A stretch of 21,020 nucleotides of DNA from Escherichia coli (GTDB taxonomy: Bacteria; Pseudomonadota; Gammaproteobacteria; Enterobacterales; Enterobacteriaceae): NCBI RefSeq assembly GCF_003334385.1, contig NZ_QOWN01000060.1. One strand, written 5' to 3'. The notes under the pieces were generated by a model that was not told the DNA's origin, made no database searches, and saw only the letters and a program-made list of their open reading frames with translations. The translations under genes were made by a program, and so were the position numbers. This document shows, piece after piece, positions 8,693-10,812 of the stretch (the stretch's first letter is position 1; every line of letters starts with the position of its first letter).

Positions 8693-8720
8693 AGGCTACC
8701 TTCGGGTGGCCTTTTTTATT
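8693..8720 (+). terminator. Rho-independent terminator after the head morphogenesis gene
   Basis: AGGCTACC (8693-8700), loop TTCG, GGTGGCCT (8705-8712): 8-bp stem with one G-U pair, followed by TTTTTTATT. Confidence 0.65.
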
Positions 8721-8777
8721 GCTGCGATCCGGATGGTGAGCAGCGTAACTGTCGGAAGACTTAAACCAGGTACTAAT

Positions 8778-9542
8778 ATGAAACTGAAAACGGTCGAGAT
8801 TAACGGAAAACAATACGCAGAAATTGATACTGCTGGCCTGCCAGTTTATGTGCACGACGATGGTAAAGAAATTGGCTTCGATGCACCGCTGGCGACAAAA
8901 AAAATTACAGAGCTTAATGGCGAGGCAAAAAATCATCGCCTGGCTAAAGAAGCTGCAGAGGAAAAACTGGCTAAGTTTGCCGCTATCGAAGACCCGAAGA
9001 AGGCGATCGAGGCACTGGAAATGCTGTCAAAAATCGACCAGAAAAAGCTGCTCGATGCGGGACAGGTTGACCAGGTTAAGGCAGAAATTACGAAAAATTT
9101 TCAGCAGCAATTAGATGAAGAAAAGCAACGCTCTCAGATGCTGGAGAAGCAGCTTTACGATTCTATGATTGGCGGTAGTTTTGCGGGTTCAAAATATATT
9201 GCCGATAAAATTGCGATCCCGGCAGATTTATTACAAGCCCGCTTCGGGCAGGCATTCAAAGTGGAAGAAGGGAGGATCGTTGCTTATGACGCTTCCGGCA
9301 ACAAAATTTATTCCCGCGCGAAGCCTGGCGAACTGGCGCAGTTTGATGAGGCGCTGGAGTTCCTTGTCGAAAATTACCCTCAGAAAGACTACATCCTGAA
9401 AGCCAGTGGCAACAATGGCGGCGGCTCCCGTCCGACACAGCATGATATTGGTCAGAAAACGATGAAACGCTCTGCTTTTGATGCACTGGATGTTGCAGGT
9501 AAGCAAAACGCATTGAAAGACGGTATCACAATCGTTGATTAA
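8778..9542 (+). CDS. Scaffolding protein (putative)
   Basis: ATG 8778 (MKLKTVEINGKQYAEID) chosen over the upstream ORF-track start 8706, which overlaps the terminator. Charged, Lys/Glu/Gln-rich, coiled-coil-like sequence immediately upstream of the major capsid gene. Confidence 0.6.
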   Translation: MKLKTVEINGKQYAEIDTAGLPVYVHDDGKEIGFDAPLATKKITELNGEAKNHRLAKEAAEEKLAKFAAIEDPKKAIEALEMLSKIDQKKLLDAGQVDQVKAEITKNFQQQLDEEKQRSQMLEKQLYDSMIGGSFAGSKYIADKIAIPADLLQARFGQAFKVEEGRIVAYDASGNKIYSRAKPGELAQFDEALEFLVENYPQKDYILKASGNNGGGSRPTQHDIGQKTMKRSAFDALDVAGKQNALKDGITIVD

Positions 9543-9640
9543 CACATTTGTCAGCTTCTGGATGGGAGCTGGTGTCAGGGCTGGATAGCTCATTACTCCA
9601 TCTATTCACAATTACGCAAATTTTTAAGGAATATTTAATT

Positions 9641-10780
9641 ATGGCTGGAAATACCCTGACCGGGTTGATCCCGACTATTTATACCGCCCTGGATGTTGTA
9701 TCCCGTGAGCAGGTAGGTTTTATCCCTGCGGTAGCAAAAAACGCAAAAGCTGACGCCGCAGCAAAAGATCAGACGGTAACCGCGCCAGTTGCGCCTGAGG
9801 CGAAAACCGAAGATATCGTACCGGGGCCGTCAGCTCCGAATACCGGTGATCAAAATATTGGCACTGTTGATGTAAAAATTACTAAATCCAAAATGGCACC
9901 GGTTAAATGGAATGGTGAAGAACAACTGGCTCTTGGCCCTTCAGGGACTTACAACACCATTCTGGCTGATCAGTTCAAGCAGGCTTTTCGCGCCCTTGCA
10001 AACGAGGTTGAGGCTGATCTTGGTGCGTTGTATTTCGGTGCTTCCCGCGCCGTGGGAACCGCAGGGACAACGCCGTTTGGTGTTAAAGATGATCTTTCTG
10101 ATGCTGCTCTGGCTCGTCAGGTTCTGGAGGATAACGGCGCACCGACAACCGATCTGCAGATGGTGCTTGGCTCCACTGCCATTGCTAATTTGCGCGGAAA
10201 ACAGTCTGTATTGTTTAAAGTGAATGAATCCGGCACTGAACAGCTACTGCGTGAGGGCGTGTTGGGGCGTCTGGAGGGATTCAATATTCACAGTTCGGCA
10301 GGTGTGAAACGAGCGCCAAAGGTTGCTGCAACTGGTTATCTCGTGAATGGAGAGAAAAAAGAAGGCGATGTTCTTATTTCCATTGATACTGGTTCGGGGA
10401 GTATTTCTGCAGGTCAGATTGTTACGTTCGCTGGTGATCCGAATCAGTATGTTGTGGCAGCAGCGACCAGCAATCTGATTACTCTTGCAGCGCCCGGACT
10501 GCGTCAGGATCTGGCCGATGATACTGCCATCACAGTTGTTGGGGCCTTTACTGCAAATATGGCGTTTGATCGCAACGCGTTTCTGCTGGCATCCCGTACT
10601 CCGGCAATGCCGGAAGGTGGCGATAATGCTGATGATGTAATGAATGTTACGGACCCGATTTCAGGGATTACGTTCCAGATTGCACTGTATCGTCAGTATC
10701 GCCAGGTGCGCTATGAAGTTGGACTGGCATGGGGTGTTTCATCAGTGAAGCCGGCACATGGTTGTCTGATTCTTGGTTAA
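9641..10780 (+). CDS. Major capsid protein (putative)
   Basis: ATG 9641 with TAAGGA RBS 9 nt upstream (the ORF-track start 9548 has no RBS). 379 aa, follows the scaffold gene and is followed by a strong intrinsic terminator, as expected for a highly expressed capsid gene. Confidence 0.7.
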   Translation: MAGNTLTGLIPTIYTALDVVSREQVGFIPAVAKNAKADAAAKDQTVTAPVAPEAKTEDIVPGPSAPNTGDQNIGTVDVKITKSKMAPVKWNGEEQLALGPSGTYNTILADQFKQAFRALANEVEADLGALYFGASRAVGTAGTTPFGVKDDLSDAALARQVLEDNGAPTTDLQMVLGSTAIANLRGKQSVLFKVNESGTEQLLREGVLGRLEGFNIHSSAGVKRAPKVAATGYLVNGEKKEGDVLISIDTGSGSISAGQIVTFAGDPNQYVVAAATSNLITLAAPGLRQDLADDTAITVVGAFTANMAFDRNAFLLASRTPAMPEGGDNADDVMNVTDPISGITFQIALYRQYRQVRYEVGLAWGVSSVKPAHGCLILG

Positions 10781-10788
10781 ACATTCAA

Positions 10789-10812
10789 ACGGGGCTTCGG
10801 CCCCATTTTTAA
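10789..10812 (+). terminator. Rho-independent terminator after the major capsid gene
   Basis: GGGGC (10791-10795), loop TTCG, GCCCC (10800-10804), then ATTTTTAAT. Confidence 0.7.

Follow-up and report, generated by a model that had tools for sequence, protein, structure and literature searches.

A two-hairpin GGA-loop RNA element and two terminator-type stem-loops around the scaffold and coat genes of a Rac-type Escherichia coli prophage

The scaffolding and major capsid (coat) genes considered here lie on a stretch of Escherichia coli DNA of 21,020 nucleotides (nt) (assembly GCF_003334385.1, contig NZ_QOWN01000060.1), hereafter the window; this stretch represents the late operon of a lambdoid prophage of the Rac type. 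The scaffolding protein, 254 residues long, is encoded at 8778-9542 on the + strand (phrog_784, E 3.5e-126; phrog_206, head scaffolding, E 2e-22). It is followed on the same strand by the gene of a 379-residue coat protein of the P22-coat type (9641-10780, stop codon 10778-10780; phrog_283, E 1.6e-136), named 'P22 phage major capsid protein family protein' by PGAP. An earlier sequence-only reading had called the same two genes and placed a strong intrinsic terminator on either side of them. The gene calls hold, and a conserved hairpin is indeed found at each of the two places: T1 upstream of the scaffold gene and T2 downstream of the coat gene. Between T1 and T2, a 45-nt element composed of two hairpins with GGA(U/A) tetraloops ~22 nt apart occurs twice, one copy lying in the 66-nt gap that separates T1 from the scaffold ATG and the other in the 98-nt gap from the scaffold stop codon to the coat ATG. 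Judged by its conservation and covariation, this element is a real, conserved structured RNA that was previously uncatalogued.

Copy 1, in the scaffold leader, occupies 8719-8763 on the + strand. Its first hairpin consists of an outer stem (8721-8725/8740-8744) and an inner CC/GG stem (8729-8730/8735-8736) that closes the loop GGAU (8731-8734); the second is a 3-base-pair (bp) stem (8751-8753/8758-8760) with the loop GGAA (8754-8757). Copy 2, in the coat leader (9548-9592, + strand), starts with a 10-bp stem (9550-9559/9564-9573) around a GGAU loop (9560-9563), followed by a second stem (9578-9582/9587-9591) with the same loop sequence (9583-9586). The Shine-Dalgarno (SD) sequence of the coat gene, AAGGAA, lies further downstream, at 9627-9632.

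Relatives were collected from annotated phages with ~70% DNA identity (Klebsiella phages, a bat-faeces siphovirus and HK639) and from two scans of viral contigs, giving 155 scaffold leaders and 150 post-coat regions, each with 100 distinct sequences. In the leader alignments, the loop G-G-A is invariant in all four hairpins of the two copies, and the stems vary in a compensatory manner. For the scaffold leader, in an alignment of 32 sequences (A1), pairing reaches 98-100% in both stems of the first hairpin, outer and inner, and in that of the second, and 7 of the 11 pairs have changed on both sides. The first stem of the coat leader is paired in 96.6% of cases, with 8 of its 10 pairs changed on both sides, against 32-53% pairing in slid controls. 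The second coat-leader hairpin, GAGCUGGAUAGCUC, is nearly invariant within the enterobacterial group. G-U pairs are frequent in the stems of both leaders, which indicates that the folded molecule is the RNA of the + strand.

A covariance model, R1, was built from 16 coat-leader sequences only, including distant members from a Caulobacter phage, a Salicola phage and environmental contigs; in its training alignment 94.6% of the cells are paired and 11 of 15 pairs have changed on both sides. Run over both strands of the 21 kb, R1 recovered its own training copy in the coat leader (57.4 bits) and a single other significant match, copy 1 in the scaffold leader (27.6 bits, E 1e-6), the next match scoring 8 bits. 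Rfam 15 gave no match anywhere in the window at gathering thresholds; in E-value mode up to 10, the region 8600-10900 returned only chance-level matches, of at most 21 bits compared with gathering scores of at least 37. A simple scan for GGA(T/A) loops on stems of at least 3 bp found 18 sites on the + strand, compared with ~21 in Markov shuffles, and is thus uninformative; the real copies stand out from chance hairpins only by their conservation and by the covariance model.

The distribution of the element follows the two head genes closely. In 170 loci (~0.9 Mb, both strands), R1 yielded 209 matches at E < 0.05, 208 of them on the + strand, and all but about ten weak ones (E >= 0.005) are situated just upstream of a scaffold or coat start, 15-110 nt ahead of a phrog_784 scaffold or phrog_283 coat gene. 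The element precedes the scaffold gene, the coat gene or both in Salicola phage CGphi29, Caulobacter phage DMCA, Rhizobium phage P106B and several environmental contigs, whose coat proteins are 40-50% identical to that of the window and whose genes downstream of the element are phrog_784 scaffold homologues. The same scan found it absent from related Pasteurella and Paraglaciecola phages, as well as from P22, lambda and HK97. In three loci (L042, 3262-4002; L047; L057), an insert of ~847 nt with a reverse-strand HNH endonuclease gene (phrog_1872/59) separates the scaffold stop codon from the coat-leader element, and the element remains beside the coat gene. In HK639-like phages (L005, L076-L085), the scaffold-coat gap is reduced to 18-23 nt and the coat-leader copy is missing; a third hairpin, GGCC-GGAA-GGCC, is instead found abutting the scaffold SD (GGAG), 25-45 nt upstream of the scaffold ATG, so that each scaffold-coat pair still has three to four GGA hairpins.

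Hairpin arrays with other loops are found in the coat leaders of sister clades. Contig L176 carries three copies of GGC-UGC-GCC (645-700) and contig L177, with a coat of the same family, three of GGC-UAG-GCC (2408-2465). Together with L206, L193 and L185, these coat leaders contain two to three hairpins ~22 nt apart, with one loop sequence shared within each contig (UGC, UAG/CAG, UGG, GGG or GGC). As single sequences without covariation support, such arrays may represent operators of this kind in clade-specific form.

Both leaders have been hidden in public annotation by start codons called too far upstream. In GenBank records, the scaffold gene begins with a GTG at 8706, which falls within T1, and the start given for the coat gene, 9572, falls within the coat-leader hairpin. 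The N-terminus of the scaffolding protein that begins at 8778, MKLK..., aligns across all relatives. Coat leaders in these relatives vary between 88 and 105 nt, and the differences are not multiples of three, which argues that the leaders are non-coding. Conserved N-termini and non-triplet leader variation thus point to ATG 8778 and ATG 9641 as the true starts of the scaffold and coat genes, respectively.

T1 (8693-8717, + strand) begins 20 nt past the stop codon (8671-8673) of a MuF/SPP1-gp7-like head morphogenesis gene and ends 66 nt ahead of the scaffold ATG. An 8-bp stem (8693-8700/8705-8712) with 5 G-C pairs is capped by a UUCG loop and directly followed by five U (8713-8717), the stem itself ending in U. 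The DNA reads AGGCTACC-TTCG-GGTGGCCT (8693-8712), then TTTTT-A-TT, corresponding in RNA to AGGCUACC-UUCG-GGUGGCCU, then UUUUU-A-UU. It folds at -13.8 kcal/mol (z = -3.78), and none of 200 shuffles folds as well. By stem, loop and U-run, T1 would qualify as a canonical intrinsic terminator; our own rough implementation of a d'Aubenton-Carafa-type score gives it ~ +26, clearly positive, compared with ~ -8 for T2, which is around or below the threshold. The equivalent site is annotated as a terminator in the RefSeq record of HK639.

A hairpin with a T-run occupies the T1 position in all 100 distinct leaders, with a perfect stem in 96 and one mismatch in the other four. These stems are often unrelated in sequence, for example AGGCUGCC/GGCGGCCU, GAGCUGCC/GGCGGCU, GACCACC/GGUGGU and AACCCGC/GCGGGUU. 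On alignment A1, 97.5% of the cells are paired, with 10 of 19 pairs changed on both sides, against 28-58% in slid controls, and the structure belongs to the + strand RNA because many pairs alternate G-C with G-U.

In about one tenth of the relatives, a small extra open reading frame (ORF) with a terminator of its own is inserted between the MuF-like gene and T1, resulting in tandem terminators. In two contigs (L003, 1846-2142; L004, 1774-2013), the inserted ORF encodes 79-98 residues with the pattern MKI(F/L)L..GGP...YEYHYQGR and is followed by GGTCGC-TAAG-GCGGCC and a T-run; the L004 copy, the only one searched, matched no PHROG or NCBIfam family. HK639 carries different extra DNA at the same junction. 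This junction looks like a moron insertion hotspot.

T2 (10791-10804, + strand) is the stem-loop GGGGC-UUCG-GCCCC, located 11 nt past the coat stop codon and 18 nt ahead of the ATG (10823) of a small gene encoding 58 residues (10823-10999). The DNA reads GGGGC-TTCG-GCCCC, then A-TTTTT-AAT (A-UUUUU-AAU in RNA); the A and the five U (10805-10810) run into the SD of the small gene (10814-10819), which begins 10 nt past the stem. All five base pairs are G-C and the isolated hairpin folds at -9.6 kcal/mol; in context, z is -1.4 and 20 of 200 shuffles fold as well. With its interrupted U-run, T2 would on its own be a weak or marginal terminator. Hence, of the two terminators described as strong in the sequence-only reading, this qualification suits T1 and not T2.

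Conservation of T2 is nevertheless high: the hairpin is present in 96 of the 100 distinct post-coat sequences, and the identical 14-mer occurs in 75 of them. The compensatory variants are few (GGGGA/UCCCC, AGGGC/GCCCU). The U-run is far more variable than the stem, with one to eight T in 9 nt. Conservation and compensatory changes together indicate that both T1 and T2 are under selection as RNA structures. The C-rich 3' arm of T2 and the G-rich SD of the small gene are also complementary (GCCCC...GGGGGC, window 10800-10820), and in the post-coat region of one relative (L050) RNAfold favours the alternative pairing of arm and SD, at -15.3 kcal/mol. Ribosomes ending at the coat stop codon could in principle switch off the SD of the 58-residue gene through this arm.

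Hairpins after the major capsid gene have been recorded in other lambdoid phages with a Q-dependent late operon, where they lie between that gene and the next SD. In the RefSeq record of P22, coat gene 5 is immediately followed by a stem_loop feature described as 'similar in location to stem-loops in phage HK97 and phage lambda'. At 2603-2620 of the P22 locus (L168), it reads GGGGCTGCGGCCCC, then TTTCTTTATGGAG, or as RNA GGGGC-UGCG-GCCCC-UUUCUUUAUGGAG: the stem is the same as that of T2, and the hairpin is identical to some T2 variants, even though the coat proteins of P22 and the window are only ~21% identical over 165 residues. A homologous next gene does not account for this likeness, as no homology was found between the small gene after T2 and P22 orf69. 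Both phages could have converged on the same minimal stable hairpin, or the likeness could reflect a specific recognition sequence or a mosaic junction common to both. In HK97, putative terminators are annotated behind the capsid gene gp5 and on either side of the major tail gene. In lambda (L169), a hairpin with a U-run lies in the D-E gap (1098-1125) and a UUCG hairpin with a poor U-run after E (2164-2181); the lambda capsid gene E is thus likewise flanked by hairpins on both sides. T2 shows the same arrangement, a stable hairpin within ~20 nt of the coat stop followed by the SD of the next gene. The Rac-type family differs in adding a canonical terminator upstream of the scaffold gene, the lambda analogue of which is the D-E hairpin with its U-run. 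On these comparisons, the T1/T2 pair is ordinary for lambda-like phages and forms a well-supported further case. Some Caulobacter-type contigs (L202, L204, L209, L203) have a terminator-like hairpin ~25 nt ahead of the coat ATG.

T1 and T2 are not unique within the operon either, as every sizeable intergenic gap holds a structured element. A generic terminator scan of the window found 23 sites, compared with 18.3 +/- 4.3 in shuffles, so there is no overall enrichment. The best-ranked sites on the + strand (1834, 8693, 10791 and 14478) all fall within the ~4% of the operon that is intergenic. The first of these is a 10-bp hairpin with a poor U-run (1834-1857, + strand) after trkG (272-1747), a K+ transporter gene that forms a moron between the lysis and packaging genes, with the same placement in the K-12 Rac prophage. 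A 12-bp hairpin without U-run follows the major tail gene (13552-13580, + strand), and a 10-bp UUCG hairpin with a U-run precedes the tape-measure gene (14478-14501, + strand).

The remaining genes of the window are arranged as follows. Between trkG and the terminase gene (4858-6168) lies a ParB-like gene; the portal gene (6171-7577) and the MuF-like gene (7558-8673) lead up to T1. The 58-residue gene is followed by the adaptor, head closure and tail genes, the tail chaperone and the tape measure. For 8400-11100, ten deposited phage genomes match at 99.8-99.9% identity. One of these near-identical phages, Escherichia phage vB_EcoS-666R9, carries the Rac-prophage genes RalR, RecT, RecE, RacC, Kil and SieB, a cI/cro/cII-type immunity region, replication genes, a Q-like antiterminator and lysis genes, and then the genes of the window in unchanged order. 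In the 99.9%-identical phage, the antiterminator upstream of the lysis genes matches phrog_753 (E 4e-79). The segment 8600-10900 is found in 802 of 5426 complete E. coli genomes (~15%). E. coli SCU-104, which has the prophage in intact form, is 100% identical over this segment. In E. coli B, it is truncated within the coat gene and abuts a tail-fibre gene.

Promoter-like sites were found neither in the gap from T1 to the scaffold ATG nor in the coat leader, nor near or after T1 or T2, and promoter-like matches are rarer than in shuffles (15 vs. 23.8). An internal promoter making scaffold and coat a separate unit was considered and rejected: the only nearby consensus match, at 9142-9169, lies inside the scaffold gene and is at chance level. 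Having no promoter of their own, the connector and tail genes downstream all depend on read-through of T1 and T2.

To the reading that combines these features we give even odds: T1 and T2 would be read through in a Q-modified late operon, and the dosage of the head proteins would be set post-transcriptionally by the 45-nt element. The window would be transcribed as one unit by polymerase modified by the Q-type antiterminator, which would mostly pass T1 and T2 during lytic growth and so reach the connector and tail genes. The two hairpins would rather stop polymerase that has not been modified by Q, whether from starts in the prophage state, from spurious starts or from the small moron ORFs upstream of T1. 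Such an insulating role would fit the position of the small extra ORF, which, with a terminator of its own, stands directly before T1 in about one tenth of the relatives. Moreover, T1 and T2 may provide terminated or processed RNA with a protective 3' hairpin, and T2 may remove a modest fraction of transcription, leaving more coat mRNA than mRNA of the downstream genes. T1 cannot raise the dosage of scaffold or coat, because it lies upstream of both genes.

Under this same proposal, the amounts of scaffold and coat would be adjusted after transcription by the element in their leaders. Invariant GGA loops on covarying stems, repeated in tandem at ~22 nt before two proteins that must be balanced, argue for a sequence-specific and probably dimeric trans-acting factor; the element is thus probably a translational operator. 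By analogy with the P22 scaffolding protein, the factor would most likely be a phage head protein acting autogenously. The sister-clade arrays, if real, would favour a co-evolving phage protein in this role, although they are suggestive only. More specifically, and only tentatively, the element may be the operator of an autogenous circuit coupled to assembly, in which the unassembled scaffold (or coat) dimer binds both leaders.

Post-transcriptional autoregulation of the P22 scaffolding protein was reportedly described by Casjens & Adams and by Wyckoff & Casjens, both in 1985, and Bazinet, Villafane & King are said to have proposed in 1990 an interaction between portal and mRNA. No RNA target is known to have been mapped in P22. 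The window resembles P22 in its head module of P22-coat type, with no protease gene seen between portal and coat, and in a scaffold gene that could be controlled at the RNA level; here, a concrete conserved RNA element is found in the leader. In P22, genes 1, 8 and 5 abut without leaders, and R1 finds no element there. Studies on this post-transcriptional autoregulation appear in the reference list of PMC5529062.

Small hairpins through which a phage protein represses translation are well known from other phages, namely the coat/operator hairpins of the RNA phages MS2, PP7 and Qbeta, and the targets of T4 gp32, RegA and gp43. As in the GGA element, the loop sequence of these operators is fixed and the stem is free to vary. 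They are single hairpins overlapping the regulated start site, whereas the GGA element is a tandem pair that lies 15-50 nt ahead of the SD and is duplicated in front of two genes in a double-stranded DNA phage, and its protein partner is only proposed. Another conserved RNA structure that accompanies a major capsid gene in phages is the Mu-gpT-DE RNA motif of Rfam, a structured RNA of unknown function downstream of Mu-type major head genes. It differs from the GGA element in its downstream position, its structure and its capsid family, and cmscan of the window against Rfam 15 gave no match to it.

Several points weigh against this combined proposal. The Q gene lies outside the window, and the evidence for it comes only from a near-identical phage. 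From the sequence we infer termination efficiency, read-through and processing, as well as the existence of a binding factor. The near-invariance of the T2 14-mer, which P22 shares, suggests a role more specific than that of a generic terminator or exonuclease block. The GGAUG loops resemble sites of CsrA, so that a host factor is possible, and an enhancer or stabiliser acting without any repressor would fit equally well with an element that marks the two highest-expressed head genes. Furthermore, sequence and structure searches with the scaffolding protein found no RNA-binding signature: a phmmer match to the C-terminal domain of chloroplast uL11 (E 0.015) was lost with a profile of 11 sequences, a match to RNase RNM (NCBIfam) reached 15.6 bits against a cutoff of 375, both of which were dismissed as noise, and Foldseek searches of the PDB with its AlphaFold2 model (pLDDT 70.5) gave no match below E = 1.

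Two regulatory roles of the RNA structures were considered and rejected. HK639 is a relative, and the put RNAs of HK022 and HK639, which act as cis antiterminators, are two stem-loops of ~65-70 nt, close to the promoter and upstream of the terminators that they suppress. The GGA element is 45 nt long, far from any promoter, in two gene leaders and without an Rfam match. Nor can T1 and the element form a terminator/antiterminator switch, as the element is transcribed only after the decision at T1 has been made.

The sequence-only reading had proposed that the hairpins set the stoichiometry of the head proteins; it had overlooked the duplicated GGA-loop element of the two leaders, which is the more specific feature of this segment. 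In its fuller form, T1 and T2 would be partial terminators in lytic growth, with graded read-through adjusting head-protein amounts, which we regard as unlikely. The generic idea stands as a standard speculation for lambdoid phages. Both sites are terminator-like and conserved, and a decrease in transcription at the site of T2 would benefit coat at the expense of the scarcer connector and tail proteins. In T7, termination at T-phi, downstream of the major capsid gene 10, is inefficient and leaves more capsid mRNA than mRNA of later genes; T2 resembles T-phi in combining hairpin and U-run immediately behind the major capsid gene and in preceding essential genes that need read-through. T7 differs in that it transcribes with a phage-encoded RNA polymerase and that genes 9 and 10 have dedicated promoters, compared with one host-polymerase operon in the window, with Q antitermination and no internal promoter seen. 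Leaky balancing terminators are also documented in LUZ7, with read-through above 50% at more than 60% of its terminators, in a study that cites T7 for this strategy (bioRxiv 10.1101/2022.03.18.484859). For the intra-operon terminators of phage L, whose 'roles are not known', partial termination was listed as one possibility and the stopping of non-antiterminated transcription as another (PMC8022706). The direction of T1 is, however, opposite to the need: attenuation there would lower scaffold and coat, the most needed proteins, relative to terminase and portal. In addition, T2 is marginal, its U-run being variable or poor in many relatives that keep the hairpin, and a Q-type antiterminator is present, which on the lambda model would make the modified polymerase ignore such sites.

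It is similarly improbable that the hairpins delimit a processed, stable scaffold-coat mRNA of ~2.1 kb, with T2 blocking 3' exonucleases and T1 or the leader hairpins stabilising the 5' end after endonucleolytic cleavage. G-C-rich hairpins capped by UUCG are very stable, and the T2 hairpin is better conserved than its U-run. The other very abundant gene of the operon, the major tail gene, is followed by the 12-bp hairpin without U-run, and the hairpin after lambda E also lacks a good one. Cleavage sites, however, are neither known nor predictable here, and T1 would protect the upstream RNA and not the scaffold-coat message unless cleavage occurred 5' of T1. A purely physical block, moreover, needs no invariant loop sequences.

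That the GGA-loop hairpins are sites of the host regulator CsrA, tying translation or mRNA protection of scaffold and coat to host physiology, appears quite unlikely. The likeness to CsrA/RsmA sites is close: GGA is exposed in the loops of short hairpins, mostly as GGAUG, as in the consensus RUACARGGAUGU obtained by systematic evolution of ligands by exponential enrichment (SELEX) and in the CsrB repeats, and multiple copies lie ~20 nt apart in 5' leaders. K-12 CsrB has CUUCUGGAUGAAG where the coat-leader hairpin of the window has CUUCUGGAUGGGAG, and the coat SD also contains GGA. The distance of ~22 nt between two sites is within the bridging range of a CsrA dimer. On the other hand, ACA, which is 100% conserved in the SELEX consensus, is missing (the contexts being AUCCGGAUGG, UGUCGGAAGA, UUCUGGAUGG and GGCUGGAUAG), the scaffold SD has no GGA, and an overlap with the SD is not obligatory. 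The element is lineage-bound: it is present in Caulobacter and Rhizobium phages, while alphaproteobacteria are not generally known to encode CsrA, and its absence from the Pasteurella and Paraglaciecola relatives means that it tracks the phage lineage and not the host. Sister clades, furthermore, have hairpin arrays with other loop sequences. The missing ACA and the occurrence in Caulobacter and Rhizobium phages led us to downgrade CsrA as the binding factor. A literature search returned nothing directly relevant on CsrA with phage capsid genes or on RNA-seq of lambda late-operon hairpins.

A protein-independent role, in which the element acts as a translational enhancer or folding insulator that keeps the ribosome-binding site open or recruits the 30S subunit through its SD-like GGA loops, is no easier to credit and seems to us decidedly improbable. 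It would agree with the restriction of the element to the two most abundant head genes, with the unstructured A/C-rich spacer and good SD that follow it in the coat leader, and with GGA being the core of the SD, universal across alpha- and gammaproteobacterial hosts. A 4-nt loop closed by a C-G pair would, however, be ill placed for pairing with 16S rRNA, other clades use loops that are not SD-like (UGC, UAG), and strict loop invariance on freely covarying stems is more typical of recognition by a protein. Very unlikely, finally, is that T1 and T2 are mainly by-products of mosaic evolution, as moron terminators or as conserved module-junction sequences favouring recombination: the T1 site does accept extra ORFs with look-alike terminators ending in GGCCTTTTTTATTAT, and the T2 14-mer is shared with P22 despite barely related or unrelated flanking genes, but a T1 hairpin in every distinct leader, moron or not, and with compensatory substitutions, argues for selection on RNA structure.

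The terminator pair thus provides a strongly conserved example of a known but unexplained habit of lambdoid phages, with an upstream member, T1, that cannot act in the way proposed earlier. The GGA element is tied specifically to two head proteins on whose amounts and ratio correct procapsid assembly depends, and it is carried, outside Rfam, by a prophage family present in ~15% of the complete E. coli genomes. Should an unassembled head protein bind both leaders, the element would be the first mapped RNA target for scaffold autoregulation of the P22 kind, described by genetics in 1985, and the UGC, UAG and UGG loops of the sister clades would reflect co-evolving protein-RNA specificities. In any case, it offers a short and mutable RNA target for the question of how double-stranded DNA phages balance scaffold and coat on a single transcript, which dates from the work on P22 scaffold autoregulation.

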